Positions 3,529-54,334 of a stretch of DNA of 64,000 nucleotides are shown piece by piece (the first letter of the stretch is position 1; every line of letters begins with the position of its first letter). A model generated the notes under the pieces. The model worked only from the letters and a program-made list of their open reading frames with translations, was not told the DNA's origin and did no database searches. Both the position numbers and the translations under genes were made by a program. This DNA is from an uncultured Planctomycetota bacterium. Its GTDB lineage: Bacteria; Planctomycetota; Planctomycetia; Isosphaerales; Isosphaeraceae. The stretch lies in NCBI GenBank assembly GCA_963823665.1, contig CAWGMQ010000006.1, positions 224,001 through 288,000 on the forward strand, written 5' to 3'.

Positions 3529-5180
3529 GAGGCTGTGATTTTTTCGGCGTTGGGGTTGATTTTGTATAGTGTTCACGTTCTAATACCATGCATGTAGTCC
3601 GCCGCATGAGCCCCACGCAGCCCCGGTGTTGCAGGACGAGCGTCATGACACTTCCTCTCTTTAGCCCAGAAGACTTGCCCGATCAGCCCTCTCCCGCCCA
3701 GGCTGCCCAGTCGATGCCAACTGGCAAGCCGCGGCTGCGGTGTCCCGTACGCGACCAGATCGAGATGCGCTGGGCATCGCTCGATGAATTGCTCGAGGCC
3801 GACCATCCGGCCCGGGTCGTCTGGGCGGCGGTCTGCAAGCTCGATCTGAAAGCCTGGCTCGGCGAGATCAAGGCCGTCGAGCGACATGTCGGCCGAGATG
3901 CCACCGACCCGCGCTTGCTGGTCGGATTGCGGGTTTTCGCCACATTGAAGGGAGTCGGCAGCGCCCGTGAAATCGAACGGCTGTGCGAAAAGAACCAAGG
4001 GAGTCTGCCGTACCAGTGGCTGTGCGGCGGCGTAACCGTCAACCACAGCATGTTGTCCCACTTCCTCGCTTGTGGGGGCGAGAAGTTGAACGAACTGCTC
4101 ACGCAGATCGTGGGCACCCTGCTCCATGCCGGGTTGGTGAAAATGGACCGGGTCGCTCAGGACGGAATGAGAGTGCGTGCCAGCGCGGGCAAGAGCTCGT
4201 TTCGTCGTCGCGGTAGCCTGGAGGAGTGCCTGAAAGCGGCGAAGGAGCAGGTTGAGGCGCTGAAGAAACTGGCCGAGGAGGACACAGCAGAGCTGACTCG
4301 ACGGCAGCGAGCGGCGCGGGAGCGTGCCGCCAACAAGCGACAGCAACGGATCGAAGAAGCGATGCGGCAGTGCGAGGAGCTGCAACGCGAACGTGACGAG
4401 TCCTACGGCCGCAAGGGGCGGGAAGCGCGTGCTTCGACCACCGACCCCGACGCGAGGATCATGAAGTTTCCAGACGGAGGATTCCGGCCGGGATATAACG
4501 TTCAATTCACAACAGACACCGAAAGCGGTGTGATTGTGGGTGTGGAGGTGACCAACGCAGGGAACGATGGCGAAGAACTTCCGCCCATGCTCGACCAGTT
4601 GGAGGAGCGTTACGAACGAATTCCGGATGAGGCATTGGTTGACGGTGGCTTCACGACCAAGGACTCGATCGATCAGGCGGCCCAACGCGGCTGCATCGTA
4701 TACGGGCCGATCAGAGACGAGAAAAAGAAACAGGCAAATGGAGAAGATCCCTACACCGCAAAGAAGGGCGACAGCGAAGCGGTTGCCGCTTGGCGGATCC
4801 GAATGGGGACCGAGGCCGCGAAGCTGATCTACCGGCTGCGAGGCCAAACAGCCGAGTGGGTCAACGCCCAGGCTCGCAATCGAGGATTCTGGTTTATGCC
4901 CGTGCGTGGCCAACCGCGTTGCCGCGCCGTCGCATTGTTGTTTGCAATTGCTCACAACCTGGTTGTCGCAGGGAGACTGCGCCCAGCGATGGGCAAACTG
5001 GCGGAATGAGCGGTACTTTGCAAAAAAGGGACAAAATAGGAAAGCGCGTTTGCGTCAACGGCTGGGCTATTGGAGAACTGGCGTGAATCGGCGGCACTAA
5101 CCGAGCGACCAAGCGGTGAATCACAGCCGACTAGGCCCAACGGCCGAGTTACCGCAACGCGGCCAAAAGATGACAGCCTC
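3529..5180 (+). mobile_element. IS1182-family insertion sequence, copy 1 (1652 bp)
   Basis: Terminal inverted repeats GAGGCTGTGATTTTTT / AAAAGATGACAGCCTC (14/16); flanked by TCC direct repeats (3526-3528, 5181-5183); near-identical to 7960-9612. Confidence 0.9.
3645..5009 (+). CDS. IS1182-family DDE transposase
   Basis: SLDELLEADHPAR (DUF772-like), SAREIERLC, YQWLCGG, DGMRVRASA, STTDPDARIMK, GYNVQ, LVDGGF, YRLR...AEWVNA; ORF open from 3588, ATG 3645 has the better RBS. Confidence 0.9.
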   Translation: MTLPLFSPEDLPDQPSPAQAAQSMPTGKPRLRCPVRDQIEMRWASLDELLEADHPARVVWAAVCKLDLKAWLGEIKAVERHVGRDATDPRLLVGLRVFATLKGVGSAREIERLCEKNQGSLPYQWLCGGVTVNHSMLSHFLACGGEKLNELLTQIVGTLLHAGLVKMDRVAQDGMRVRASAGKSSFRRRGSLEECLKAAKEQVEALKKLAEEDTAELTRRQRAARERAANKRQQRIEEAMRQCEELQRERDESYGRKGREARASTTDPDARIMKFPDGGFRPGYNVQFTTDTESGVIVGVEVTNAGNDGEELPPMLDQLEERYERIPDEALVDGGFTTKDSIDQAAQRGCIVYGPIRDEKKKQANGEDPYTAKKGDSEAVAAWRIRMGTEAAKLIYRLRGQTAEWVNAQARNRGFWFMPVRGQPRCRAVALLFAIAHNLVVAGRLRPAMGKLAE

Positions 5181-5301
5181 TCCGCGAAGGGTCACCAAAG
5201 TCTGGCAGCACCGGGTGGGGCTCCAGGCACGCTCTCGCTCCAGCCTGACACCGCGACTACAATCGAGTGCCACGAGTTTGCTTCATGTGGGAGTTCGTTC
5301 T

Positions 5302-5976
5302 GTGGCCGACATCTCTTCGCAAGATTTGAACGTTCCCCCGATCAAAACCGAGGAACAGCTCGTCGCGCAGTTGATCAAGCATCGGGACGAAATCCGCAAC
5401 GGAGCGGCGCTCTTCAACGGCGTGCCCATCAATTACGAAACCGAGCTCACTCGATTCGTGCGTGCGACCGGCTTCTTGCATTTGCGCATTCGGACATACT
5501 CGGGTTATCTCGTTGTTGACCAGGAACCACTCGAATCCCTTCGACGAACCTATATCGTCTCTTCCCTGATGTTGGGTTGGTGGTCCATCCCGTTCGGTGT
5601 GATCGATACGGTGAGCGCTGTCGGAACCAACATGAGGGGAGGAATACGATCTAAAGTCAGCGACCTGATCGGAGGAGACGACGTCGTCAAGCTCAGCAAA
5701 CGCGCGGCAGAAGCGGCGGTCAAACAGATGGCCGAGCGCGGATTTCCACCGGGCTCGGCGCTGCGGCTCGACGTGACCGGCAGAAAGAGGCCGCTCAAAT
5801 ATGAAATCACGTATGACGACGCGCCGCCGCTGGGCGGTCGCGACTGGATTATCGAATCGAACGGATTGACCATCCTCGTCTTCAGAAGGGACGCGCCTCG
5901 CGTCAAAGGGCTCACGGTCGACTTTCAACAGGGCGCATACACCTTCCACGAGGGCACGTTTGCCTCGCCCGAGTGA
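5302..5976 (+). CDS. membrane protein with C-terminal HesB/IscA-like domain lacking cysteines
   Basis: Part of ORF 5116..5976, GTG after GGGAG; LGWWSIPFG...NMRGG segment, then VKLSKRAAEA...ALRLDVTG...YEITYD...GLTILV...GLTVDF. Confidence 0.55.
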   Translation: MADISSQDLNVPPIKTEEQLVAQLIKHRDEIRNGAALFNGVPINYETELTRFVRATGFLHLRIRTYSGYLVVDQEPLESLRRTYIVSSLMLGWWSIPFGVIDTVSAVGTNMRGGIRSKVSDLIGGDDVVKLSKRAAEAAVKQMAERGFPPGSALRLDVTGRKRPLKYEITYDDAPPLGGRDWIIESNGLTILVFRRDAPRVKGLTVDFQQGAYTFHEGTFASPE

Positions 5977-37124: not shown

Positions 37125-38096
37125 TCAGGACGTCGGTTGGCGGATCGGCCGCCTCGCGTGCCTGAGAATTCGTCGAGCGCTCACCAGCGCAATCGCGAGG
37201 CCGGCGAAGGCCAGCGTCGAGCACTCCGGGATCGCGGCTGGAGCCGGCGGCGGCGCCATATCCGACGGAGTCAAAATGTAATCGTGCGAATCCTGCCCCA
37301 CCGCAAGGATCTGGCCGAGATTATTGATCGCCAGCGCGCCGGTAAGAACGATCGGAGGGGCGCCGCTATTGAGCAAGAGGTTCAAGTTATACATTGTGCC
37401 ATTTTCGTAGATAAATGCGTTGCTGAGTTGAGAGCTGTTGGGTACGAGTGGGCTGCCGGCGATCAAAGACCAGCCGACAACCTGTCCCTGATTATTCAGG
37501 CCCAGGGCGGCGGCATTCGCTCCGCCCAGGGTTCCGAGCTCGGTAATGTGTCCGTTCTGGAACAGGAAGGCGTTGGGATGGCCGTTCACGTCGCTAGAGT
37601 GGAATCCCGCGACCTGCCCTGACGCGTTGATCGCCGTTGGCGTCGACGCGAAGTATGGAAACACCGTGAACTGCCCGTTTGAATAGAACCAGCCTGCCTC
37701 GGCACCGTAGTTCGCGCTACTGATGTTTTGATTGGAGATCCCGATTTCCTGACCGGCTGCATTACTCGCCAGAGCGTTACTCCAGGAATATCCCGGCAGC
37801 GATACCTGCTCGGGCAACGCGCCCGTCGGCGTGCTGGCGACGGGAAAAGTCTGCACCGTTCCAGCATCCGGGCCTGAAGTCGTGTACACAAAATTCAGTG
37901 ACGACGAGTACTGGCCGATCAGGTTCCCAGATGCATTGAAGCCCGTAACATTGAGCGGATTGAGAGCGGACAGGTCCGTGACGTTATACGTGACCGGTGA
38001 AATCGGGTCGGCTCGCGCTTGCGACGTGGCCAAACCAATGAAGAAGAGCAGCATCGCGCCATGGGTTCCCCTCGCAAGTGGCCGTGCACGCATCAT
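37125..38096 (-). CDS. HAF-repeat extracellular protein with PEP-CTERM-like sorting signal (IPEC variant)
   Basis: Signal peptide (ARA-DP), [31 protein letters not shown] + TM + Arg tail. Confidence 0.85.
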
Positions 38097-38190
38097 TCCC
38101 CTCCTTGGGTTGGATCGTCTTGGCGAGAGAATTCGAAGGAACGAGCAGGAACGACGGCGCACAAGTCCGTGGTCACGACGCCCTGAAGGC

Positions 38191-39162
38191 TCACGAGTCG
38201 GATCTGGGCACGGACCAATTCCGCTTCCTTAACGCGGCGCGGAAGCCTAACGCGCCGATCGCCAGACCGACGAAGGCGAGCACCGAAGGCTCTGGCACGG
38301 CATCCGGCGGCGGAGGCGGCACGGTCGGCAAATTCGACGGAGTGAGCAGGTAGTCGTGCCCTCCGTTTCCACCGACCAGGATCTGACCGGCATTGTTGAT
38401 CGCAAACGCGCCCTGGAGATAAGGCGGAGTGTTTCCTGGAGCGATCAAATTATTCAGGTTATACATTATGCCATTTTCATAAACGAACGCAGTCGGTTGC
38501 CCACCGAACGGAGCGATGATGCCTGGAGGGGATGAAAGATTGGAAGAGCCCACGACAACCCCGTGATCGTTGATCCCCGAGATCTGGGTCTGAATTCCAC
38601 CGGGCAGCGTTCCAATGTCGGTCACCTGGCCATTGCTGTAGAGATACCCATGGGCATTTCCGCTGATGTCGTTGGCGTTGAAGACGACCTGGCCCACCGC
38701 GTTGATCTGCGGGTTATAGGGGTACTGCTGTGGAAATACGGTGAATTGACCGCCTGAATACTCCCACGCGTAGTAGACGCCCTGCTGTCCGTTACTGAGG
38801 GTCTGGCCGGCGAGCCCGGTAGCCTGGCCGGCCGCGTTCCCGCCGTACTGGGCAGTCCACGAGTATCCCGGTACATTGCCAGGGTTCGTGGGGTCGTTCC
38901 CATTCGCCGTAGTCGTCGGTGCAGTGGACGACAATTGCAGAGATCCCGCGTTTGAACCTGAGGTCGCAAATGTATAGTAGACGTTGTTCCCAGCGTACTG
39001 GCCGACAACGTTTCCGTTCGAATCGAAACCCGTCGCGATCAAGTGCCCCATATCAGTCACGTTGTAAGTGATTGGGTCGGCATGGGCTTGCGAAAGGACG
39101 GTGCCGGTCACGAACAGCAAGCCAGCGCATCGGTATGCAATCGTGAGTGGGCGAATCCGCAT
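38191..39162 (-). CDS. HAF-repeat PEP-CTERM protein (paralog of the neighbour)
   Basis: Signal peptide (AHA-DP), [23 protein letters not shown] + TM + basic tail. Confidence 0.88.
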
Positions 39163-39269
39163 TTTACCCCTCCGTGGGTAGGAGATGCTCGACGGATGTA
39201 ATAGAATGAAAAAAGTACTCTCAGTTGCCCAAAGCGTCAATGCGTAGTTGTACGAGGATTTATTATCCA

Positions 39270-40850
39270 ATGCAGCCAGCTTCCCGCCTTCACAAGATGT
39301 TCATCATGTTCGCCGGTGCGCTCCTCCTGGTGGCGGGTGCTGCGGCTGCGCCGGCCGAAAAAATGTTTCCCGCTGAGCAGGCTGCCGCTCTCGACCGGAT
39401 CACGGCCGACTCGCTCAAAGGGCACCTCTCGTTCCTGGCCTCCGACCTGCTCGAGGGCCGGGATACGCCGTCGCGCGGGCTCGATCTTGCGGCCGAGTAC
39501 ATCGCCGCCCAGTTCCGCCGCGCGGGGCTGGAACCGATCGGTGACGACGGCTATTTCCAGACTGCCAACTGGGAGCTCGCCGAGACCGCGCCGGGGGGTT
39601 TTGCGTTCGAGCTCGGCAATGGAGAAAACCCGTCCATTCAGGTCGGGAAGGAGCTGGTGAGCTTGCAGCGCCTGCGCGGGTTCAATGTCCGGTCTGCCCC
39701 GGTCTTCAAGATCGACGCCGGCGACACAAAGGTGCTCGAGTCATTGACATCCCAGCAGGTGGAAGGCAAAGCCGTGCTGGCCGTGATTCCGAATGTGGGC
39801 TCCAGAGACAGGGCCGCAACCCGGTCCGTCACTGCGTTCATGGCGCGCCTGGCCGCTCTCAAGCCCGCGGTCGTGGTGAACCTGAGCCGGCTCCCGGGCG
39901 CGGCGACGGGGTTTGCCCCCGGCCGGGCGACCGATCCGGAAAACCCACGGAGGTCCGCGTTTTCCGCAAGCGAGCGCTCCGGACCACCGCTCTTGACCGT
40001 TCACGATCCCAAGGTCCTCGCCGTCTATGACTCGCTACCGCTTGGCCCGGCGAAGAAGCTCACGCTTTCGGTACGCCTCGACGAGCCGGTGAACCGCCCG
40101 GTGAAGGTGCGGAACGTCGTCGGCTTGCTGCGAGGATCGGATCCCGATCTGAAGAATACGTACGTACTCGTCACCGCCCATTATGATCACGTTGGAAACC
40201 ACGGCGCACCCGGTGAGAAAGGCGACCAGATTTATAACGGCGCCAACGACGACGGCAGCGGCACGGTCTCGGTGATCGAGATCGCAAGCGCGCTGGCCAC
40301 GCTCAAGAGCCGCCCGAAGCGCAGCATCCTTTTCATGACCTTTTTCGGCGAGGAGCACGGCCTTCTGGGCTCAAGGTATTACGGCCGGCACCCTCTGGTG
40401 CCGATCAGGGAAACGGTGGCCGACATCAATCTGGAGCAGGTGGGGCGAACCGACGATTCCGAGGGCCCGCGTGTCGGCGCCGCCGCGCTCACCGGCCACG
40501 GCTACTCGAACGTCTCCGACGTCTTCGCTGCCGCGGGCGCGGCCGAAGGGGTCAAGCTCGAAAAGCACCCGAGGTTCAGCGACTCGTACTTCGGCCGTAG
40601 CGATAACCAGGCGCTTGCCGACCTGGGAGTGCCGGCGCACACGCTGTGCGTGGCGTTCGTGTATCCTGACTACCACGGCGCCGGAGACCACTGGGAGAAG
40701 ATCGACTACCCCAACATGGCCAAGATCGATCGCATGGTCGCCCGCGGCCTGCTCCTGATCGCCGACGACCCCGTCGCCCCCAAGTGGAACGCATCAAACC
40801 CGAAAGCGGCGAGGTATCTGAAAGCCTGGAAGGCCATGCAGAGCCCTTGA
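39270..40850 (+). CDS. M28 family peptidase
   Basis: FLASDLLEGR, VTAHYDHVG, NGANDDGSG, GEEHGLLGS, RSDN, DYH. Confidence 0.92.
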   Translation: MQPASRLHKMFIMFAGALLLVAGAAAAPAEKMFPAEQAAALDRITADSLKGHLSFLASDLLEGRDTPSRGLDLAAEYIAAQFRRAGLEPIGDDGYFQTANWELAETAPGGFAFELGNGENPSIQVGKELVSLQRLRGFNVRSAPVFKIDAGDTKVLESLTSQQVEGKAVLAVIPNVGSRDRAATRSVTAFMARLAALKPAVVVNLSRLPGAATGFAPGRATDPENPRRSAFSASERSGPPLLTVHDPKVLAVYDSLPLGPAKKLTLSVRLDEPVNRPVKVRNVVGLLRGSDPDLKNTYVLVTAHYDHVGNHGAPGEKGDQIYNGANDDGSGTVSVIEIASALATLKSRPKRSILFMTFFGEEHGLLGSRYYGRHPLVPIRETVADINLEQVGRTDDSEGPRVGAAALTGHGYSNVSDVFAAAGAAEGVKLEKHPRFSDSYFGRSDNQALADLGVPAHTLCVAFVYPDYHGAGDHWEKIDYPNMAKIDRMVARGLLLIADDPVAPKWNASNPKAARYLKAWKAMQSP

Positions 40851-40947: not shown

Positions 40948-41388
40948 ATGGCTCGCCGACCTGCTGAGGATGTGACCGACACCGAGCTGGCGATCCTGCA
41001 TGTGATCTGGAACGAAGGCCGGGCCACGCGGCGGCAGATCACCGATGTGCTGTACCCGCAGGGCGGCGAGGCGCACTATGCGACGGTGCAGAACCTGCTG
41101 GGCCGGCTCGAGCGCAAGGGATTCGTCCGCCACACCCGGTCCGAGGGGGTGCTGATCTTCACGACGAGGGTCGGCCGAGACGAGCTGATTCGCCGGCGGC
41201 TGCAGGGCGTGGCCGACAAGCTCTGCGGCGGTGCGGTTGCGCCCTTGCTCATGAATCTGGTCCGGTCTCGCCCGCTCTCCCCGGGTGAGGTCGAAGAGCT
41301 GTACGAGTTTCTGCGTAAAGAGCGCGAGCGGGTGCCAGGGTCAAAGCCTCGTCGTGATCCAGCCAGAAAGGAGCCCCGCGGTGGATGA
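40948..41388 (+). CDS. BlaI/MecI/CopY family repressor
   Basis: VTDTELAILHVIW...YATVQNLLGRLERKGFV...ADKLCGG...LLMNLV. Confidence 0.92.
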   Translation: MARRPAEDVTDTELAILHVIWNEGRATRRQITDVLYPQGGEAHYATVQNLLGRLERKGFVRHTRSEGVLIFTTRVGRDELIRRRLQGVADKLCGGAVAPLLMNLVRSRPLSPGEVEELYEFLRKERERVPGSKPRRDPARKEPRGG

Positions 41389-43555
41389 CCTGTTCCGGAT
41401 CGCCGTGAGCAACGCGGCGTGGGCCGCCGGGCTGGCGCTTGTCGCCGCGGCCGGGTCTCGCCTCTTTCGGCGCCGGCCGGCGCTCGCGCACACGCTCTGG
41501 CTCTTGGTGCTGCTCAAGCTGGTCACGCCTTCGGTCTTGAACGTGGCGCCGCCGTGGGGGAAAGTGCCGGTCATGGATGCGCGAGCCGGCGATCTGGCGA
41601 TCCATGTGGTTGTCCCGGCGGTGGAAATCACGTCATCCCGGTCGTCGGATGCCGGATCTCCGGAGAAGCGGGTACTCGCTCCGTCTCCGTTGCACGCGGC
41701 GTCAACGCCAACGGCGGGGACTTGGCCATGGCGGATCCTGATCGCTTTGGGCTGGCTGGCGGGTGCAGTCATCTGGTGGGCATGTGTTGTTCTGAGCATC
41801 CGGCGCTTTCGGAAATTGCTCCGCGTGTGCATCGCGGCTCCCGAAGCCCTGCAAGAGCGTGTCAAGCAAATTGCGGCGCGCATCGGGTTGGGCGCGCGCC
41901 GGCTTCCGCGTGTGATGATCATTCCAGCGCGGATTCCGCCGTTCGTCTGGGCTTCACTCACAGGCCGGCCCCGGCTTTTGTTGCCACACGAGCTCTGGGG
42001 CCGGCTTGATGAGTCTCAGCAGAACGCACTGCTCGCGCACGAGCTGGCCCACCTGAAGCGCGGCGATCACTGGGTGCGCTGGCTCGAGGCGATCGTGCTC
42101 GGGTTGTACTGGTGGGATCCGATCGCCTGGCTGGCCCGCCGGGAGCTCGAGCGCACGGAAGAGGAATCGTGTGACGCCTGGGTAGTCTGGTCGCAGCCGT
42201 CTGCTGCCGGTTCCTATGCTGAGGCTCTCGTGGCCACGGCGGCATTCTTGTCCGAGGTCCATCGTCCGCTGCCAATTGGTGGTAGCGGATTTCGAAGCAC
42301 GTCCGCAATCAAGAGGAGGTTGGAAATGCTCCTGTCTGACGCTGCCAAGCCGTCGATCGGCCGGGCTCGATCAATGAAGTTGCTGGTGCTCGCCGCTCTG
42401 TGCTTGCCGCTCCTGCCGGTGCCCGCGGGCGAGAATCGGAGTGTCCGGGCGGGCGAACCGACTGAACAATCGCAGGGCACCAAAGCCCAGGCAGCCGGAC
42501 AACGGGCCGTGGTTCCCGGTACGGTAGTCGGTGCGCCCATCGTGGGCGGACAGTTCGTTGTGATCCGGCCGGTTGTACGCCACGTTGGCGGTCAACTCGA
42601 ACTTGAGCCGTCGCCACTTCAACCAGCGCACCGCGTCGAGCTCAATTCCCCGATGAGTGGAACGCTGCAAAAAGCGCTTTGCAAACCAGGGCAGCAAGTC
42701 AAGAAAGGGGATGTGCTGTTCCAGTTTGACGCAAGGTCTGCCGAGCTCGAGCTGCAAAAAGCGGAGGCCGAGGTGATGCGGATGCAGGCTCGCTTGACCG
42801 GATTCGACCTGCAGCCCGGATCGAGACGGTCCGGCGAGGGACAAGCGCGGTTCGGCGAGGCGCAAGCAACCTTGCAAAGTGCAACGGCTGACCGAGATCT
42901 GATGAAGCTCAAGCTTGAGTCGACGCGGGTCAAAGCACCGTTTGACGGCGTGATCGCGCGCGTCGTCGGGTCCGAGGAGAGCTTCATCCAGGCAGGTGCG
43001 GCCCTGACAACGCTCAGGTCCGACGCGATGCTTGCTCTCGACGTCTACATTGAGGAACGCACCGCTCGCCGGTTCGACGCCCTCTTGCAGGACGGTAAGA
43101 ACGGCGCGGCCGACGTGGTTCGTATCGCTGTGAGAGACGAACGGGACTTTCCGCGCAAAGGCTTGATTGACTTCATTGATCGTGAAGTCCAGCCGCTGGG
43201 CCAGGTGCGACTGCGCGTGCTTGTCTCCAACGTCGATCGCTCACTCAGGCCAGGGCTACTGGCTCGAGTGCAGATTCAGGCGGGCGCGCCCGAGGATTCG
43301 ATCGTCGTGCCGGACTCGAGTCTCATCGAGAACAACGGCCGGCGATACGTATGCGTGCTGGCAGAAGACAACACGATCGTTCGCCGGTTTGTGGAAGCGG
43401 CCGAGCGAGTTGACGATTTGCGAATGATCGAACGCGGTTTGAGCGTGAACGACTGGGTGCTCGAAAGCAGAATCAATCCTGCGCTGATCGGCTCCAAGCT
43501 CTCCGAGCAGGCCATACTGCGCGTCGACGCCGCGGCGAAGCCGCCGATACCATGA
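41381..43555 (+). CDS. BlaR1-like M56 peptidase fused to an RND periplasmic adaptor (MFP) domain
   Basis: LWLLVLLKLVTP, LAHELAHLKRGDHW, EESCD, IKRRL; C-terminal GQQVKKGDVLF, TRVKAPFDG, LRPGLLARV, VVPDSSL. Confidence 0.88.
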   Translation: MDDLFRIAVSNAAWAAGLALVAAAGSRLFRRRPALAHTLWLLVLLKLVTPSVLNVAPPWGKVPVMDARAGDLAIHVVVPAVEITSSRSSDAGSPEKRVLAPSPLHAASTPTAGTWPWRILIALGWLAGAVIWWACVVLSIRRFRKLLRVCIAAPEALQERVKQIAARIGLGARRLPRVMIIPARIPPFVWASLTGRPRLLLPHELWGRLDESQQNALLAHELAHLKRGDHWVRWLEAIVLGLYWWDPIAWLARRELERTEEESCDAWVVWSQPSAAGSYAEALVATAAFLSEVHRPLPIGGSGFRSTSAIKRRLEMLLSDAAKPSIGRARSMKLLVLAALCLPLLPVPAGENRSVRAGEPTEQSQGTKAQAAGQRAVVPGTVVGAPIVGGQFVVIRPVVRHVGGQLELEPSPLQPAHRVELNSPMSGTLQKALCKPGQQVKKGDVLFQFDARSAELELQKAEAEVMRMQARLTGFDLQPGSRRSGEGQARFGEAQATLQSATADRDLMKLKLESTRVKAPFDGVIARVVGSEESFIQAGAALTTLRSDAMLALDVYIEERTARRFDALLQDGKNGAADVVRIAVRDERDFPRKGLIDFIDREVQPLGQVRLRVLVSNVDRSLRPGLLARVQIQAGAPEDSIVVPDSSLIENNGRRYVCVLAEDNTIVRRFVEAAERVDDLRMIERGLSVNDWVLESRINPALIGSKLSEQAILRVDAAAKPPIP

Positions 43556-43570
43556 TCGCGCGCGCCACGC

Positions 43571-45439
43571 TCAGACCGCGTGCGACCAGCCGGGCGGCCA
43601 CACCGTTTCGCGTGGAGCGCTCGAGGCCGGATCATCGACGTCAGCCGGTTCGAGGAAAAGCCAGCACGGAACTCGCTCCGGCTCGTCGAGCCGGAGCAGC
43701 CAGTAACCGATGCCGGCGGTTCCCGAGAAAAGCGATGGGTTCGGTCCGCCGCCGGGAAAGCCGGTCGGCCAGTTGTCCTGTTCGGAATAACGATCGATCA
43801 AGGTTTGAGCGAGGTCGCGCGAGCGGTCGAGATATGAGCGATCATCGAGCGCATGGACAGCCGTCAACAGCACCGCACCCAGCCCGGCGAGCCCGTCGCG
43901 AATCGTCGCGTCAAATCGTGGAACGGCGATGCGTGCATCGATCGCGCCGAGCACCGCAGTGAGCGCCGTTCGCGCCTGCACGAGGTGGCGTTCCCTGGAT
44001 TCAGCGTCTCGCATTGCGGCGCGCAGCAGGAACATGGCCGCTTCACGCGCACGGCCAGGGCCGTTCCGGATCGGGTCGCTGCTTGTCCGCTGCGGGCCGC
44101 TTACCGGCAGGCGCGATCGAGCCATCGCCCCCTGCGCAGTGCGCCGGAACTCTTCGTGACCGGTCACGGCGTGAAGATGCGCAGGAAGAGCGCGATGCCG
44201 GCGGAGCCTTCGCGCAGCCCGGGCCCGAGCGCCGCCGCGACCACGCCGGTTGGGCTCTTGCGCTCCGACTCGCCCATGCGCACTCGGCCGATCCAGTTGC
44301 AATAGCGCCCGGTCGAGTCCCAGACGGCTTGCCGGCAGAGCGACTCGCCGATCCGGATCGTGGCATCTCTCGCGGAGATGGTGCGTCGGCTTGCGCTAAC
44401 GCGAGCATCGGAAAGCGTCGTGCCCCGCGCCGTCGCTTCACACGCGATCGGCAGTTGAAAATGATCGATCGAGCCAGCTTGCAGATAGGGAAATCGCGGG
44501 TCGAGACCTTCCGCTTTGTAGACTGCTGCGAATGTGGCGGCGCGAGCCGCGCGGTCGCGGTCGCCGCGCAGAAACGACCGCCAGAGGGCACGCGCGGACA
44601 GGTTGCATCGGTGGTCTCCGAAGCTCACCGGGCCGGATGGGCTCTCGGCCGCGCCCAATCCTCTCGCGATGGGCTTCGTGAAGAGCGGCACGCTCTCCCG
44701 CAGCCCGGACTCGACGGCCGCGTGAATGTGCGCGATCGCATCGCGGGCCCGCGCGTCGTAGCGCCGCGCAAGAAGATCAAGCCCGCATCGGCGCGCCGAA
44801 CGCATGCGGGTCCGCAAGTACCTTGAGGCAGAATGGCACGTCGTCCGCATTGAGCCGCTCGGTTGCCGCGGCGATGAATGGAACCGCGGCCTCGCTGGTC
44901 AAGTGCCAGTAGTACCGGATGAGCGGCGTGGAATCGTCTGGACCGCACTCGTCCAGCGCCTCGCCGTCGGCAAAATAAAAACCAGGAACGCGAATCCGCA
45001 GCTCCTTGCCGACCCAGACGAAACACGTCTGGCCCGGCTCGAGTTTTCCGCACGGAGTGTAAACCTCCTGCGGCGCGGCCCAGATTGTGAGACCATCCTT
45101 GCTGAGCGTGGGGTGCCCCTGCGCATCCACTTCGCGCACGACCCAGCCGCTATGCCACGTTCCGCGCCCGGTATTGGCCGCGTGCAAGGCACATAGCCGC
45201 TGCCGCGAAGTCGGCTCACCGGAGGGGAACGGCTCGCGAAGGCGGCTCGGTCGAATGTAGAGCACGCGATACAGGACATCCGAGAGCGCGAGCTCCCACG
45301 GCGGGGCCGCCTCGCCGGGAAAGTCGTCCGCGGCTGGCGTGGCGAGCTCGCGATGTTCGCCGAGAACCGTGAAGCTCGCGGGTGAATCGATTACCACCGC
45401 ATCAAGCACGCTCCATAGATCGGGATGCAGCTCGGTCAT
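43571..45439 (-). CDS. HopA1-family (LanY-like) lyase fused to a shortened LanC-like domain (three apparent 1-bp frameshifts near 44795, 44768, 44185)
   Basis: HopA1: PGFYFADG, RYYWH, PFCLKVL, RADAGLIF, VPLFTKPIARGLGAAE, SFGDHRC; LanC-like: LCRQAVW...CNWIG, GSAGIALFL, PSLFSGTAGIGYWLLRL. Confidence 0.75.
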
Positions 45440-46559
45440 CAGTGCGCCGCGCCCCGTGGATGCCGAATAGCCGCGCGCGGGCGAGCTCCGGTTGTGAGAG
45501 CACGTTCGCGCTCAGTTGAAGCATGATCACCGATCGCGGATCGAGGACACTCAGCTCGCTTGAGATTTCGTACGCCGACTGGATCAATCGCACCGCCGAG
45601 AGCTTCACGGCCCGATCGAGCAAGAGCCGCAGTTCGATTTGATCTGCTTCCACCGCGACCTGATAGCCTTTCCACAGCGACCGGCTCAGAGCCTGGACGG
45701 TCTCGAACGGGAACTTCGCCAGCGCGGCGCGCTCGTCAATCGACAGATCGGCCGTCATCGGTATCGAGACGACCCAGGATTTCACGAAGGCCATCAAGGC
45801 GCCGGCCAAGTCCCACGCGGGGTCGCCGAGCTGGACCATCTCCCAGTCGATGAGCCGGATTTCCCAGGGCCCTTCGGTGCCACTGTTCTTGACGAGGACG
45901 TTGTCCGGCCGGAAGTCTCCGTGAATAACCGTCTCGGCGCCGCAACCCTCCAGCAGCGAATCAAGCTCCCGAGCGCAGCCCTCCTCCGTTTGAAGCACGC
46001 GGATCAGCTCGGCATTGGCCGGGCTGAGGATCGAGAGCACCTGGGGGGTGGGCCGATGGAGCGCCATCGCCCAGGGCGCCGCGCGTGAAAGCCAGGCCAG
46101 GCGCGGGCATTGCGCGAGCTCCGGCGTGCGGAAGGTCCGATGAACGGTGGCCAGGGCGCCTCCGATCGCGCCGGCGACTGCGATCGCCGATCGTTGGTCG
46201 GCATTTGGCTTGAGGAATGCGGATAGGGTCACCGCTTCACTCAATAGCCCAAGCGCGAGCACGGGGCCCTCGCCGTCATAAGCGATCAGCCGAGGTGCGA
46301 TCGCGGCCACGCGGGCGGCTGCGGGCTCGGACTGGCAGTATTGATAGAACGAAGCTTCGGCGCCGAGCGTTTCCCGGCTGCGCGCCTCCGCCTCGCCGGG
46401 TCGTTTGATCAAGAGCCCTGCTCCGCCGGGCCCCTCGATTAACAGGTTGGCGTTTCGTCTCGCGGCGTGTCGTATCGTGAGCGACCCGCCGATGATCCAG
46501 TCGGGATCGATCAGTCGCCGCGCGAGCAAGTAAGGCGCCGCATCGTCGAGAGAGAGCAT
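45402..46559 (-). CDS. APH-family phosphotransferase (LanK/TvaC-like kinase)
   Basis: RRNANL...LLIK, IHGDFRPDNVL, IDWE...GDPAWDLAG; stop likely near 45440 (TGATG coupling) if one indel is corrected. Confidence 0.85.
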   Translation of the reverse strand: MLSLDDAAPYLLARRLIDPDWIIGGSLTIRHAARRNANLLIEGPGGAGLLIKRPGEAEARSRETLGAEASFYQYCQSEPAAARVAAIAPRLIAYDGEGPVLALGLLSEAVTLSAFLKPNADQRSAIAVAGAIGGALATVHRTFRTPELAQCPRLAWLSRAAPWAMALHRPTPQVLSILSPANAELIRVLQTEEGCARELDSLLEGCGAETVIHGDFRPDNVLVKNSGTEGPWEIRLIDWEMVQLGDPAWDLAGALMAFVKSWVVSIPMTADLSIDERAALAKFPFETVQALSRSLWKGYQVAVEADQIELRLLLDRAVKLSAVRLIQSAYEISSELSVLDPRSVIMLQLSANVLSQPELARARLFGIHGARRTDDRAASRSMERA

Positions 46560-46662
46560 CGCGCGATCGCCTCAGCGAACGGTGTGAGAGCTCGATTGAT
46601 CGGCAAATAAGACAACCGAATGGCCGCGGCCGGCGGCCGGCGCGGGGCTTTTCCCGATTGAT

Positions 46663-47163
46663 CTACTCGGGCGGCTTGGGCCGCCGCGCCGCACGGTGAA
46701 GGTGGATGGGCTCCGTCACGACGCCGTGTGGCGGCGGAGGTGGAGGCGGAGTCTTTTCGACTACTGCCGGGGCCGAAGCCGATTCGATCGACCGTGCCAG
46801 GAATGATGCGACCAGGTGCCCCTTCAAGAATGACGCGGCCGTACTCGAGAGGGTCGTATGAACCACGAGGTGCGGCTGCGCCGCGGCGACGATGCCGACA
46901 TTCACCGGCTCGGTGGTATCTTCGCCGATCTTGGGCCAGATGTGCCGGATATCTTTGGTCTGGAGCTCGTAATAGGATTGAAAATCATGGTGGAGGTAGA
47001 GCCGGATATTTCCATCAATACTCGAGTGACCGGGGTAGCCGGTCAATGTAACCAGATGCTCGTGCTGATCTGGGTCTTCGTGGAGATTCGCCGCCAGCGG
47101 ATGCTCGAAGATGTCTTCGCCATCGGGGGTCTGCCCGAGATGGTGAACGTCTTTTTTCGCCAT
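46663..47163 (-). CDS. putative RiPP precursor-like protein (166 aa, His-rich, Pro7 tract, no Cys)
   Basis: ATG after GGAGG; LTGYPGHS..GNIRLYL...YYE and FLKG leader-like segments; low-complexity tail; first gene of the kinase/HopA1-LanC operon. Confidence 0.65.
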   Translation of the reverse strand: MAKKDVHHLGQTPDGEDIFEHPLAANLHEDPDQHEHLVTLTGYPGHSSIDGNIRLYLHHDFQSYYELQTKDIRHIWPKIGEDTTEPVNVGIVAAAQPHLVVHTTLSSTAASFLKGHLVASFLARSIESASAPAVVEKTPPPPPPPHGVVTEPIHLHRAARRPKPPE

Positions 47164-47325: not shown

Positions 47326-50300
47326 CTACGGAGAAGGGAGCGACCTGGCCACGCGGAAGCCGATCGTGAACTCGGAAACGCCCGGCTCGTACTTGGCGCG
47401 CACTGCCGACTGAGCGTCGGGCGGCCGGCTGCGATACGACCCCCCGCGCATCACGCAGTAACGGCTGTTGAGTATTTTATTGAAAATATAGTCCGATGAT
47501 TGGTCGTTGGCGAGGGCCTTGTAATCGTAGTCGGCGTCGTGGCACCACTCCATCACATTTCCGAGCATGTCGAAGAGGCCCAAGTCGTTGGGCAGCAGGC
47601 TGCCGGTCTTGAGCAAGCTCACCTTCTCCCAGTCGGTGAGCCGGGCATACTGCCGCAGGAGTGCCAGTGAATGACCGTAGTACCGACTGGTTTCCGTGCC
47701 GGCGCGGCATGCGTATTCCCACTCGGCTTCGGTGGGAAGGCGGTAGCCTCCGTTATCGAAGGCCCGGACATCGCAGCGCATTCCTTCGGCGAATTTGCCG
47801 TCGTCGTTCCTGGCGTACACCGGTTGCTTACCTTCTTTCTCGCTCAGCCAGTTGCAGTAGGCCGCCGCCATGTACCAGGTCACCCCGGCCCGGGGCAGGT
47901 CAAAGTCAGAGCCGGGGCCGAATTGCGGTTTGTCAAAACTCGCGGAATGGGTCTTCCAGAATTCGTCGAATTCCGAGATGGAAACCTCGGTCGCGGCGAT
48001 GGCAAACCGGCGGGGAATCCTCCGCTGGTGCTCGACCTCGTTCTGGTAATCGGGGTCGTTGCCCGCAACACCCATGCGAAACTTGATCGGGCCGTCCAGG
48101 TGCACCATCGTTTGACCGCTCGAATTGACCGACCAGCGTCTGTTTCCGATCTGCTTGCTCTGTGCCAGTGCGGAATCGATCTGCCGCAATTGTTCACCGA
48201 GATGCCAGCGCGAGAGGGTGTATCGGGCCGCGCCATGAATCCCGGGATCCTGATCGGTGCCGTAGAACTCGACCAGCATCTGGATGGCTCGCTCGCGATC
48301 CGGTGCCGGCAGGTGCGACGGGTCGTACTGCCCCACGATCAGGATGAGCGCACGGCGGATCGAAGTGTCCCCGTCGAACAGGGCCTTTCGATTGGGATCA
48401 CCCAGCGGCTGCTGCGCTTTGCCGGCGGGTGCCTCAGGCGGCGCATGGGCCGTGCCCGCGATGCCCGCGAGGCAAGCCTGCAACGTGCGCGGATCGTCGC
48501 CAAGCCGGGCGAGCCAGTGAATGAGAAAGCTCCGTAGCCGCGGATCACTCTTGTGTGCCAGGAGGGGCCAGACTCGCTCGGCCTCGCCCAGGCGGAAGAG
48601 GGCCACGGCGGCCCTGGCCTGGCGCTCGGCGCGGCGGTCTTTCTCGACTTCGCCTCGCGGCGGCTGGTCTGGGTCTTCGCGGATCGCGCGCTCGAGCAAC
48701 GGGAGCGACTGGTCCGGCCGCCGTGCGATCTCGGGGAAAACCAGGGCAAATTCCTTGGCGCCGGCTTCCTGGAGCAGCTCGACCAGCTCGTCGGGGTTTT
48801 CCGAGGCGTAGTCGACCAGAAAGTTCATCGCGTGCATGCGATCGGTCTCATCGCGGCCGTCGCTGCGCAAGATTTCCCGAAGCGCGGCTCGAAGCTGCTC
48901 CTTGACGGGCCGGAAGATCTCGAGCCACTGGCTCACATGGATCGGGTTCACCGAGACCATGGCACCGGCGACCTTGTTCGCAACGCCCTTCCACCGCGGG
49001 CTCGCGTGATCGAAACGCGCCAGCGCCCCGAGGCGCCCAGGATGCGCGTGTCGTCGGGGCCGTTTTCCTCGACCATTGCCCAGAGCCGCGGGCTCAGGGA
49101 ACTGGCGTGGCCCTTGAGGAATTCACAAAGTACAGCAAGCTCGACCGGGCCGGCATCGATCAATCTGCTCGACAGGTAATCGACTTGCGACGGATCTTCG
49201 CTCAGCAAGGCGAGGCTCGCCCGCAGCTTCCGATCCGGGTCGCTCGCTGAGCGCGCGAGCAGCTCTTGCAGCGCGGGGTCCGTCCACTTGCGATAGCCGC
49301 GCATCTCGGCGATGCTCTCGGGCACCCGGGCGATCTCGGCGCTTCGCAGCCGCAGCACCAGGTCCATTGCGTGGTTGCTTTCGTACGCCTCGTTGTAAAA
49401 CAGGCGAACCTGGAGGCCCGCGACCACGAGCGCGCAGATTGCAACGGCCGCGGCGATGCCGCGGATAGCGACTTTGCGGTCGGACTGCTTCATCATTCGC
49501 CGCTCGTGCTCGCTCCATGCGGCGGGCTTAGTGAACAGTCGTATAGAAACCCATTCTCGGGCCAGGGGAAGCTGACGGCTCTCGGGCTTCGCGTTCCAGA
49601 GAGAGGACCGCTCGGCCAGCAATAGCTCGGCCCGCCCACGACGCGTCGACTTCTGCTTGCGCGTCAACCATTCGCGCAGCGAATGCACGAGGTAATCGTG
49701 CGTGAGCTGATAGCAGCGGCCAGCCTGAGGCGACGGCGTGCTGGCGTCGTCCAGCGGATCCACCGGTGTGATCAGCCGGAGGTCGCTGTCGAGGATGCGG
49801 ATCAGATGGTCGAAGTCGTCCAGCCGGTCCTTGTAGCCGGAGGCGAGCCGGAGCTCCTCACTCGAACGCATGCGGCCCTTGATATCCGAGTTGCTCTCGG
49901 GAAGCAGCGATTTCAGCACCGCCTGCGCGGCAAGAGCGTGATAGCGATGTTCGGGATTGGAGCGGGCCGAGCCGAACGTCTCTTCCAGGAACCGCACGCC
50001 CACGCCGTCCATGCCGCCAACGTCGCGGAGCGTGGCCGGAGTCCAGGGCTTGCCCTTGACCATCTCGGCGAAGAGGGCCAGGCGCACCGGCACGATCCAG
50101 CCGTCCTGTGCCAGCCCAGGCGTCGCCTGGTCGAGGAACGCGTTCTGTTCGCGGCTCATGGTGGTGGGTTCCGTGGGCAAGCTCTCGTACGCGCGGCCGA
50201 ACGCCGCGAGTACCCGGCGGGCGTGCTTGACGTCAAAGAGGTCGACCGCAGCCACGTTGCGATGCGGGACCAGGTCGACTTCCAAGTCCCTCATGAACCG

Positions 50301-52010
50301 GGTCGCCGCCATCCAGAAGTCATCACGGACGAGGCAGAGAGCCTGGATGTGCTCGCCGTCGCACTGCCGCAGCGCGGTGATCAGCTCCGAGCCTGATTCA
50401 CGCCCGCGCGCGAAGAGCCACTGCTCGAACTGGTCGAGCACCAGGAGCAACTTGCGCTCGGCAAGGAGCGAATGGTTGCGCCTGAGGAATGCCATCGCCT
50501 CGAGCAGGCCGAGCATTAAGGGCAGCTCGGGAAACGCCTTGCGCAGCCCGCGCAGCAAGCTGGCCTCGGTATTCGCGGCGGTCGACTCGATGTACACGGG
50601 CTTGACGCGGGGCGAAAGCAGAGGCAAGAGCCCGGCCTTGAGCAGCGACGATTTGCCGCATCCCGAAGGCCCGTAGATGAGGCCGATGCGAAACGTCTTC
50701 TCGGCCTCGGGCGCCTCGATGCGGGTCTTCCAGAACCGGAGGCCGTCCGGCAGGCCGTCGCGGTCGCGAGGTCCGGGCAAGAGCTCGAGAAAGAAATCGG
50801 CGTCGTGCTCGTCGAAACAGCCAAGCCCGCGGGGAACAACCTTGATCGGACGCGGGGCCAGGTCGGATTGGGCCGAGGCCGGTGGCGAGGAGGGCGCTGG
50901 CTCGGCGGCGGGTGCAGCCGGAAGCAGCGGCAAGGGCGTGAAGGGCGCGAGCGCACCGCGGTCGCTTGAGATTGTGCTCAGATAGTACCTGAGGTCTTCG
51001 GCCATGTCGCGCGAAGTCGAGTACCGCTCGGACGCCCGCTTGGCGATCGCCTTCAGGCAAATGCGCTCGAGCTCACGGGGAATCGTGTCGTCGATCTGGC
51101 GGGGTGGACGCGGCTCGGTGCTCGTGATCTGGCGCAGGACGTGCTCGGGCAAATCGCCGCGAAACGGCCGGCGGCCGGTGAGCATCTCGTAGAAAACGAC
51201 CCCGATGCTGAAGATGTCGGACCGGCCGTCGACCAGGTGCCCCTCGCCGCGGGCTTGCTCGGGGCTGGTGTAGGCAATGGTGCCGGCGAACCGCGGGCCT
51301 TTGCCGTAGTCTTCGTCCTTCATCGCCAGCCCGAAGTCGGCGAGGTAGGGCACGCCGAAGTCGTCGATCAGGATGTTGGCGGGCTTGATGTCGCGGTGGA
51401 ACAGGTCGCGAGTGTGGGCGTAATGCATCGCGTCGCAGATGGCGGCGATCAGCCTGGCCGATTCCAGAAACGGCGGGCGGCCCAGCTTGAGCCTGGCTGC
51501 AAGATCGCCGCCCGCTACGAACATCGACACGACGTAGCCGCGGCCGTCGTCGGCGCGGCCCACGTCGTGCACCGGCACGATGTTGGGGTGGGAGAGCCGC
51601 GCGAGCACGCGCGCTTCGTTCAGGTAAAGCTCGAGATCGACGATCGCGCCGGCCCCGCGGGTGATCGGCACCTTGATGGCGACCTGCCGCTGTAGCTCGG
51701 CGTCGCGTGCCAGGAACACACGCCCGAACGCGCCTTGACCGAGCCGGCGAATCACCTGATAGCGGCCGATGGAGGCGGGATCGGCATCGGAGGGCCCGGA
51801 GGCGGGCCCTCGCCCCGGCGCACCGCCTGCCCCGTGCGCAGCGGCGGCCTCCGTGGGCAGGGTGCTGTACTCCTCCGCGGCGTGATCGAGCAATTCAGCC
51901 AGCCAGTCGTCCGCCCTTCCGGTGCCGCGGGCGGCAGACTGGTCCTTTCCGGCCCCGCCGGCGCCGGGACGCCGGGGGTGTTCAACAGGGTCCGGTAGGT
52001 CGGCTGACAT
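47326..52010 (-). CDS. Ser/Thr kinase - STAND NTPase - FGE-sulfatase (SUMF1) multidomain protein (frameshift near 49028)
   Basis: LGQGAFG, VAIK, HRDIKPAN, DFG; GPSGCGKSS, LVLDQFEQ, YQLTHDYL; YRLPTEAEWEYACRAG, PNDLGLFDMLGNVMEW, GFRVAR. Confidence 0.9.
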
Positions 52011-52021
52011 CGTTCAGGAGC

Positions 52022-54073
52022 TCACCAGATTCGCACGCGATGCTCCGGCGCCAGCCAGAGCTTGTCTCCCTCCTTGACGCCGAAGGCCGCGTAGAACTCC
52101 GGCAGATTCCGCAGCACGCCGTTGCAGCGAAACTCGGCCGGTGAGTGCGGGTCGGTGGCGATCCGCCGCGCCAGCTCGGCGTCACGGAATTTGGTGCGCC
52201 ACGCAAGGCCCCAGCCGATGAAGAACCGCTGATCGCCGGTCAAGCCATCGATCACCGGCGCCTCCTGGCCTTTGAGCGACCGCCGGTAGGCCTTGTATGC
52301 GATCGAAAGCCCGCCCAGGTCGCCGATGTTCTCGCCGATGGTCATGGCGCCGTTGACCTTCTGCCCGGGCAACTGCTTGGGCTCATACGTGTTATACTGC
52401 TCGATCAGCTTCTTGGCGCGGCTTTCGAATTCCTTGCGGTCGGGGCCGGTCCACCAGTTGACCATGTTGCCGTCGCCGTCGAACTTTGATCCCTGATCGT
52501 CGAAGCCGTGGCCGATTTCATGGCCGATGACCGCGCCGATGGCGCCGTAGTTGAATGCGTCATCGGCATTCATGTCGAAGAATGGCGGTTGGAGGATCGC
52601 AGCCGGAAAGACGATCTCGTTCATGCCCGGGTTGTAGTAGGCGTTGACGGTCTGCGGCGTCATGCCCCATTCCTGACGATCGACCGGCTTGCCCAGCTTG
52701 GCGAAGTTGCGTGCCCGCTCAAACGAGGCCGCTCGGCGCACGTTGCCAACCAGATCGTCGGGGTTGATCTCGAGCTTGGTGTAGTCACGCCACTTTTCGG
52801 TGTAGCCGATCTTGGGGGTGAACTTGGCCAGTTTCTCGAGGGCACGTTTCCGTGTCTCGGCGGTCATCCAGTCGAGAGATCGGATGTCTTCGCGGTAGGC
52901 CTCGATCAGGTTGGCGACCAGCTCCTTCATCCGCTCCTTGGCCGCAGGCGGGAAGTGCTTGGCGACATACAGCTTGCCCAGCGCTTCGCCCAGACAGGTC
53001 TCCGCGATCGCCACACCGCGCTTCCACCGCGGCTTCATCTCCGGCGAGCCGGTCAGCGTCTTCTGGAAGAAATCAAAGTCTTCTTCCACGAACTGCTTGC
53101 TGAGCAAGCTCGCCGCGTCGGTCAGGACCTGCCACTTGAGCCAGGCCTTCAGGTCGGCAAGCGGCGTATCGTTAAGGATGGTGCTGAGCGCCTTGAGGTA
53201 GTCGGGCTGGCGCACGACCACCTCGTCGACTTTGACGTCACCCACGGCGCTGAACCAGGCGTTCCAGTCGATGCCGGGCGAAAGCGAATCGAGCGCCTTG
53301 CGGTCCATCTTGTTGTAGGTGAGGGTGCGATCGCGGTTTTTCACGCGGTCCAGGTGGTGCTTGGCCAGAGCAGTCTCGACGGCCATCACCCTGGCCGCTT
53401 CGGTCTTCGCGTCGGCAATTCCAGCAAGCTTGAACATCTTCTCGACGTGAGCGAGGAACTTCTCGCGGAGCGGCTTGAATTTTTCTTCGCGATAATAGGC
53501 CTCGTCGGGCAGGCTGATGCCGCTCTGATTCAGGTAGAGGATGTACTGGTCGGACTTCTTCTGGTCGCTCGTCACGAATGCCGCGAAGAGCCCGGTGATT
53601 CCCTCGCGCTGAAAGCTCGCGATGGTAGGAATCAAGTCGGCCTTGTCCTTGATGGCGTCGACCTTCGCCAGGTCGGCTTCGATCGGCTTCATTCCAAGCT
53701 GCTCGACCCGCGCCTCATCCATGAAGCTCTTGTAGAAGTCGCCGATTTTCTTCGCTTCTGATCCCGGAGCGCTGCCAGTGGCCGCGGCGGCTTCCTCGAT
53801 GATCGCCCGGAGGTTGGATTCGCTCTTGTCTCTGAGCTGATAAAACGAGCCGTCAGCCGGCTTGTCCGCGGGGATCTCGGTGGTCGCGAGCCAGCGGCCG
53901 TTGACGTGGCGGAAAAAGTCGTCCTGAGGGCGAACCGAAGGATCAAAACCTTCGTGGCCTGCGGCCGCGCCGGCGGCCTTGGCCTTGCGATCGTCGGCGA
54001 CTGAGCTGGGGACGACAACCGCGGTGAAAAGAGTGGCGGCGAGGAGTGCCACGCTGGTCCGATTCGATTTCAT
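52022..54073 (-). CDS. pepO: M13 (neprilysin/PepO-like) metalloendopeptidase, secreted
   Basis: PQDDFFRHVNG, VNAYY, GHEIGHGFD, GENIGD, DPHSP. Confidence 0.93.
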   Translation of the reverse strand: MKSNRTSVALLAATLFTAVVVPSSVADDRKAKAAGAAAGHEGFDPSVRPQDDFFRHVNGRWLATTEIPADKPADGSFYQLRDKSESNLRAIIEEAAAATGSAPGSEAKKIGDFYKSFMDEARVEQLGMKPIEADLAKVDAIKDKADLIPTIASFQREGITGLFAAFVTSDQKKSDQYILYLNQSGISLPDEAYYREEKFKPLREKFLAHVEKMFKLAGIADAKTEAARVMAVETALAKHHLDRVKNRDRTLTYNKMDRKALDSLSPGIDWNAWFSAVGDVKVDEVVVRQPDYLKALSTILNDTPLADLKAWLKWQVLTDAASLLSKQFVEEDFDFFQKTLTGSPEMKPRWKRGVAIAETCLGEALGKLYVAKHFPPAAKERMKELVANLIEAYREDIRSLDWMTAETRKRALEKLAKFTPKIGYTEKWRDYTKLEINPDDLVGNVRRAASFERARNFAKLGKPVDRQEWGMTPQTVNAYYNPGMNEIVFPAAILQPPFFDMNADDAFNYGAIGAVIGHEIGHGFDDQGSKFDGDGNMVNWWTGPDRKEFESRAKKLIEQYNTYEPKQLPGQKVNGAMTIGENIGDLGGLSIAYKAYRRSLKGQEAPVIDGLTGDQRFFIGWGLAWRTKFRDAELARRIATDPHSPAEFRCNGVLRNLPEFYAAFGVKEGDKLWLAPEHRVRIW

Positions 54074-54334
54074 GGGATCTCTTCTGCTCCTGACCAATGA
54101 AGTTCCAGCGGTCTGACGCGATGTGCGCGTCAAACCCGACGGCTTGACCGACTCCGTTCGGCCTGTCTCCCGGTGACCGGCGGAGGATCGATGCTTTTTC
54201 TCATCCAGAACAGCTTCGATTAATAGCGGCGATTATGCAAGGTATATCCAGGGCGCGGGCGCTGGTGAGTCGGGCTTCCGGCCTGACATCCGCCGCGGAA
54301 GACGCGGATGATACGACCTGCCACTCGGCGCCAG

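Follow-up and report, generated by a model that had tools for sequence, protein, structure and literature searches.

A derived class V-type cassette with a cysteine-free precursor and a shortened, zinc-less LanC in a soil planctomycete

The window, by which we mean the whole 64,000-nucleotide stretch analysed, carries a precursor protein, a LanK-type kinase and a HopA1-like lyase (LanY) fused to LanC (Table 1). The known products of class V enzymes are ring-shaped antibiotics. We read this cassette, at about even confidence, as a conserved derivative of a class V system that has lost the precursor Cys and most of the cyclase, and that would phosphorylate and then dehydrate a Thr in the precursor tail, with no thioether ring. 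The cassette would act much as class V dehydratases do, but it lacks two marks of a lanthipeptide pathway, namely the Cys and the cyclase site. If this reading is true, a clade that dropped both together, and is yet conserved, would be using the same writer-eraser chemistry for another purpose on a protein.

The initial annotation described a three-gene modification system. The three co-oriented minus-strand genes lie where it placed them, including the 166-aa ORF; their count is a different matter, as the unit probably comprises four genes. The probable fourth frame break, the deletion within LanC, the absence of Cys from the substrate and the upstream kinase-STAND-FGE gene had all been overlooked.

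Table 1. Features of the cassette and of the gene upstream of it
Feature	Positions	Strand	Basis or remark
Receptor-like gene: Ser/Thr kinase, nSTAND1 NTPase, hydrophobic helix, HEAT-like, FGE-sulfatase	47326..52010	-	Pfam Pkinase, nSTAND1, FGE; HEAT_2 below cut-off
Precursor/substrate protein, 166 aa: predicted folded β domain ~1-104, docking helices, Cys-free tail	46663..47163	-	
Precursor residues 105-130 with FLKG motif, predicted kinase-binding helices	46774..46851	-	Predicted complex interface
T138-x2-PPPP-x-H146-G147 motif, putative modification site	46723..46752	-	Clade conservation
APH-fold LanK-type kinase	45402..46559	-	PF01636; the gene probably ends near 45439
LanY (HopA1-like lyase) fused to shortened zinc-less LanC, 620 aa via three breaks	43571..45439	-	
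HopA1 lyase core	44482..44986	-	CaoY R187/K219/R229 equivalents kept; Tyr236 position is Phe
LanC remnant	43643..44376	-	Alignment, pairwise comparison, helices in model

Genes, frame breaks and selection

The kinase has the class V feature of a stand-alone APH fold with catalytic residues: it matches PF01636 above the cut-off (E 1e-17), contains the motifs HGDFRPDN, IDWE and GDPAWD, and its K52, H213, D215, N220 and D238 are invariant in 14 of 14 sequences. The HopA1 and LANC_like profiles both match the fusion, HopA1 over two ORFs (profile positions 8-67 and 84-170) and LANC_like as one piece at the operon end (266-347). The fusion of about 620 aa that had been proposed on the strength of three 1-bp repairs is borne out by a stop-free read-through of 620 aa, with X at each break, and by an intact 610-aa ortholog in G001, a genome of the same genus. 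Relative to this ortholog the window lacks one base each near 44798, 44765 and 44182, and the bases flanking the breaks are identical at 26-28 of 30 positions. The kinase extends 19 residues past its last L[FYL]G motif, against 1-8 residues in 13 homologs; a probable fourth break near 45452 would lengthen its C-terminus, and the kinase-STAND-FGE gene is probably split by a single-base break near 49030.

Three or four breaks within about 2 kb, with no contig bridging any of them, together with the loss of the cyclase site, are consistent with a decaying relic whose breaks are real in the window genome, and the complete paralog in G001 could have freed this copy. We nevertheless find this very improbable. 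The same deletion is present in eight other ORFs of 605-647 aa, which are 56-84% identical to the G001 copy, or closer to it; genome G000 contains no second HopA1 locus; dN/dS is below 0.45; and three of five essential genes checked in the same assembly are also split across frames (rpoB, rpoC and ileS, with valS and alaS whole). Given these split genes and the intact G001 fusion, the breaks in the window copy are most likely assembly errors, though no contig spans a break. Short exact pieces occur in four soil runs of low share, and no RNA run is listed as matching. The G001 sequence is itself broken at other places, in its kinase.

Between the window and G001, dN/dS is 0.22 for the precursor, 0.30 and 0.36 for the halves of the kinase and 0.19-0.43 for the pieces of the fusion; in the upstream gene it is 0.27 for the FGE part, 0.10 for the STK domain and 0.16 for the STAND domain. 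The precursor, kinase and fusion are under purifying selection, with values of 0.19-0.43 over the three genes that indicate that the clade is maintained; the constraint is looser than on the STK and STAND domains. Intergenic RNA structure was no better than in shuffled sequences (z 0.24, -1.02, 0.57).

Scans of the collections gave few loci, four from metagenomes and one from a genome. The fusion profile matches 24 of the 121 genomes of the window's family, and the precursor was detected in one of a sample of 400 other genomes of the phylum, with nine candidates scored per genome. Broader alignments gave no usable pattern.

The precursor and its predicted docking on the kinase

The 166-aa precursor contains no Cys, has no signal peptide and matches no Pfam or NCBIfam model. 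It belongs to a family of 679 clusters (E ≤ 0.001) for which Pfam has no model of the β-domain leader. Among the matches listed, the members of this family combine a conserved domain, about 110 aa long, with an FLxG motif and a tail of Cys, Ser and Thr that varies. L113 is nearly invariant and G115 invariant among 84 family members. The AlphaFold2 model has a mean pLDDT of 84.6, with a β-rich domain mostly above 90. Foldseek found no match to this fold among solved structures at E ≤ 0.001; the best VIA Z was 3.3, the weak matches being Hfq/SH3-like barrels, and all Atlas matches were below 0.9.

The proposal that a minimal system of LanK-type kinase and LanY-LanC fusion acts on this unusually large substrate agrees with two results. 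A member of the precursor family adjoins the kinase in 23 of 28 cassettes, the exceptions being L026, L027, L035, L036 and the short contig L037, and a model docks the precursor on the kinase. The predicted complex scored 0.77, against 0.16 for the best control; the mark for such scores was attained by 116 of 157 solved pairs and by 2 of 215 mismatched pairs, and across runs the contact agreement was at least 78% and the partner pLDDT at least 64. The FLKG helices (residues 105-130) are predicted to dock on the kinase C-lobe, which would leave residues 131-166 free as the core. The docking score may owe something to likeness to solved LanK complexes, because the LxmKY complex has been solved.

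After removal of six frameshifted or unrelated rows, 141 of 155 precursor-family proteins could be scored, and 16 of these have Cys-free tails. All but one of the 16 fall in one clade (support 0.967), and neither the window precursor nor the clade tails hold the core Cys from which class V (methyl)lanthionine is made. Among cassettes with a long fusion (described below) and a precursor, 20 of 21 have at least one tail Cys, the exception being L023b, which is Cys-free. A direct link between a Cys-free precursor and a short fusion is found at two loci, the window and L014; four more pairs are linked indirectly, through equal-sized contigs (45570, 698714, 542303, 55138). T138, P141-144, H146, G147 and the C-terminal E166 are present in all 14 full-length clade members, and Thr138 is the sole invariant Ser or Thr in residues 131-166.

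Several other family members are of note. P0017 has T-PPPPP-C-H and a C-terminal Glu and may be an intermediate; as it carries both residues, a simple exchange of Cys for His was rejected. The only longer fused precursor is P0019, a precursor-kinase join that probably arises from a frameshift. Metagenome contig L004 has the same gene order around a distant Cys-free member. In another planctomycete family, L040 encodes at 4860-5858 a precursor some 325 aa long, whose tail carries 23 Cys arranged in repeats; the lyase and LanC are apparently separate ORFs, and the receptor gene is absent. In the L036 cassette an S8 peptidase stands where the precursor would be, and at L027 (111-2636) a long fusion lies beside a TPR gene, with kinase and precursor undetected.

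The LanY-LanC fusion

The fusions fall into two size classes, of 605-647 aa (short) and 750-800 aa (long). In trees made with FastTree the short fusions form one clade (SH 1.0) nested inside the long forms, and a G475 cassette is the nearest relative in both the fusion and the precursor trees, with weak support (0.48 and 0.59). The short fusions lack about 165 aa, corresponding to LanC repeats 2-4 of seven hairpins plus the WCHG turn, so that LanC in the window clade is shorter by about two-fifths; the remnant keeps repeats 1, 5 (minus the WCHG turn), 6 and 7. The HopA1-LanC fusion of the initial annotation is present, but it is not a normal lyase-cyclase, since the full forms have 750-800 aa and the zinc site and acid His are absent.

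Residues were counted in nine full-length short and 24 long forms, excluding fragments P0169 and P0170. The GxSHG His (acid His) and the WCHG Cys (first zinc Cys) are absent from all nine short forms, which keep the CHG His in no case and the CHG Cys (second zinc Cys) in one; the long forms keep the first two in 24 of 24 cases and CHG in 23 of 24. All four residues corresponding to the zinc ligands C284, C330 and H331 and to the acid His H212 of NisC are absent or replaced in the window LanC, which in this differs from class Vb. Because the zinc site and acid His are absent and the substrate is Cys-free, the window fusion is unlikely to make lanthionine. P0182, a 770-aa fusion lacking only the CHG motif, is a possible intermediate.

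Loss of zinc is not in itself enough to exclude cyclisation: the ThurKC cyclase is described as metal-free, with an essential Asp771 at the zinc-His position (PMC10604976). A new cross-link might arise if the LanC remnant or the lyase joined dehydrobutyrine to a nucleophile other than Cys, be it His146, a Lys, another protein or a small thiol. His146 is invariant together with Thr138, and His-to-butyrine links are described in noursin (PMC10206099). The zinc-His position is Asp or Asn in seven of nine short forms, as with Asp771, and the remnant is conserved (67-71% identity in the clade) and modelled as eight helices in the G001 ortholog (mean pLDDT 74.7). However, the remnant has lost the acid His and three of its seven hairpins, the replaced positions vary (Glu in P0167, Ala in P0168), and the rigid polyproline spacer, about 25 Å by our own estimate, disfavours a Thr138-His146 ring. 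The missing hairpins and the rigid spacer make cyclisation a minority reading, and the cross-link seems to us distinctly improbable. In the preferred reading, dehydration with no ring, the LanC remnant would be structural only.

The lyase residues Arg/Lys/Arg, equivalent to CaoY R187/K219/R229 as mapped by spacing and by the LxmY alignment, are conserved in 33 of 33 sequences, all nine short forms included. In CaoY, K219A and R187A are described as abolishing or nearly abolishing elimination and R229Q as impairing it (PMC9486802). The structure modelled for the G001 ortholog has LxmY as a match, at E 4e-17 and with a TM by target of 0.74-0.77. The position of CaoY Tyr236 is Phe in all nine short forms; among the 24 long forms it is Phe in four and Leu in one.

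The fixed change from Tyr to Phe raises the alternative that the lyase is crippled too. In that case the cassette would only phosphorylate Thr138, ahead of the polyproline run, and the phosphorylated protein would be a signal to the kinase-STAND receptor encoded upstream. The corresponding Tyr of SpvC is described as participating in deprotonation (PMC9486802), and the single invariant Thr and the receptor linkage would suit phosphorylation only. We consider this unlikely, as Arg/Lys/Arg is kept throughout and the HopA1 core has a mean identity of 71% within the short clade, equal to the best of any region. The Phe is also carried by L017, L022 and L027, three long forms in which the zinc site is complete, and is therefore no proof by itself of a dead lyase. 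Under the preferred reading, by analogy with class V chemistry, the kinase would phosphorylate Thr138, and perhaps also Ser128 and Ser130, and the HopA1 domain would eliminate the phosphate to give dehydrobutyrine.

The architecture of kinase plus HopA1-LanC was already predicted in 2021 (PMC8153245), and it resembles class Vb. Eyles et al. (2021, PMC8153245) report 1,340 cases of HopA1, 96% of them with an adjoining phosphotransferase, and propose HopA1-LanC fusions as an uncharacterised lanthionine synthetase; their Families 11 and 20 likewise combine a phosphotransferase with such a fusion. The two Family 11 peptides compared are actinobacterial and of a different sequence type from the window precursor, and RLYL and YYEI, the hallmarks of the window's precursor family, do not occur in the peptide table of that paper. 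Class Vb is described as LanK, LanY and a separate LanC (PMC11186320). As presented for mSmoA, it shares with the window an APH kinase, a HopA1-like lyase and a LanC-fold protein beside the precursor, with no decarboxylase; the window cassette, by contrast, joins lyase and LanC in one protein, its LanC is missing three hairpins as well as the zinc site, its 166-aa precursor is Cys-free and predicted to be folded, and it has a linked kinase-STAND-FGE gene.

Class Va (CaoK/CaoY and LxmK/LxmY, PDB 9DK1-3) is alike in lyase fold, Arg/Lys/Arg and leader-kinase docking, the last as predicted here, whereas the window cassette has no flavin decarboxylase, LanX, reductase or methyltransferase, and its kinase lies far under the cut-off for LxmK NF038156 (68 bits against 315). 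The flavin decarboxylase, LanX and YcaO of class Va and thioamitide systems were found neither beside the window cassette nor in 56 flanking ORFs of 25 other cassettes. NHLP-type structured leaders, as described in PMC12537861, are also large folded leaders on a modified peptide; the window domain differs from them in being β-rich with no Pfam or PDB match, and in having LanK/LanY rather than LanM as partners. What is new here is the derived clade, with its zinc-less short fusion and Cys-free precursor, and the linked fourth gene. Neither a truncated-LanC clade nor the receptor linkage appeared in the titles and abstracts searched, which leave subscription journals largely uncovered. Long-form relatives from this family offer substrates ready for study of the LanY-LanC fusion.

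The upstream gene and its neighbours

Upstream of the precursor, at a distance of 162 bp, is the kinase-nSTAND1-helix-HEAT-like-FGE gene. Its hydrophobic 19-mer has a KD of 2.3 in the window and of 1.7-2.5 in 10 of 10 homologs. Of 27 cassettes that could be assessed, 17, from 10 genera, have a gene of this type immediately upstream; three others have a kinase-WD40 gene there and one a TPR gene with a weak kinase match. It was duplicated together with the cassette in G001 and G475, while the downstream genes vary. Genes of the kinase-STAND kind are widespread, with at least 14 in G000 and a presence in 65 of 121 family genomes, and FGE gave 52 matches, but the five best non-self STAND matches are all cassette-adjacent. 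In the tree of these genes 16 cassette-adjacent copies stand apart from 19 of 20 non-adjacent paralogs, the value of 0.948 supporting the node that includes L075 and not the 16 copies alone, and none of the 20 non-adjacent paralogs has a precursor or fusion within about 5.5 kb downstream. The linkage is one old, kept arrangement rather than many independent ones, and it may be just one inherited arrangement.

From this linkage we infer a functional tie between the receptor gene and the cassette, in which the product would work with the membrane protein in signalling and not as an exported antibiotic. A bolder form of this proposal is that a lanthipeptide pathway was turned into a signalling switch, the kinase writing phospho-Thr138 on the small folded protein, the cell's own phosphothreonine lyase turning it irreversibly into dehydrobutyrine (or a His/Lys cross-link) and the co-inherited kinase-STAND membrane receptor sending or reading the mark; we offer this tentatively and think it doubtful. 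With the helix as predicted, the FGE domain would be extracytoplasmic and so separated from the precursor, which lacks a signal peptide. Many kinase-STAND genes of planctomycetes are unexplained, and for one branch of them the long linkage suggests a testable role. No ECF sigma-like ORF was found upstream of the receptor gene in the window.

G001 has a second receptor and cassette unit about 15 kb away (L015, 3757-7875), with a four-Cys precursor and a 774-aa fusion that retains zinc motifs. G475 (L023) has two such units in tandem; no long-form relative is nearer to the Cys-free clade than its first precursor, which has PPPPP and one Cys. An M13-type peptidase with a likely signal peptide (52022-54133, minus strand) precedes the window receptor gene by 12 bp and is in the same place in G001, and at L021 an M13 peptidase, 71% identical, is directly downstream of the fusion; it is possibly a candidate protease for the system, or plain synteny. 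Downstream of the cassette are found HypF in L017, L019 and L028, and a DUF4166 and/or saccharopine-dehydrogenase-like gene in three other genomes. Convergent with the window cassette are a BlaI repressor and a BlaR1/M56 peptidase fused to an HlyD-type domain (40948-43555, plus strand). Beyond them, 37125-40850 encodes what we take to be two divergent secreted proteins with PEP-CTERM-like tails and an M28-like peptidase, and in G001 the counterparts of these genes follow the second, complete cassette.
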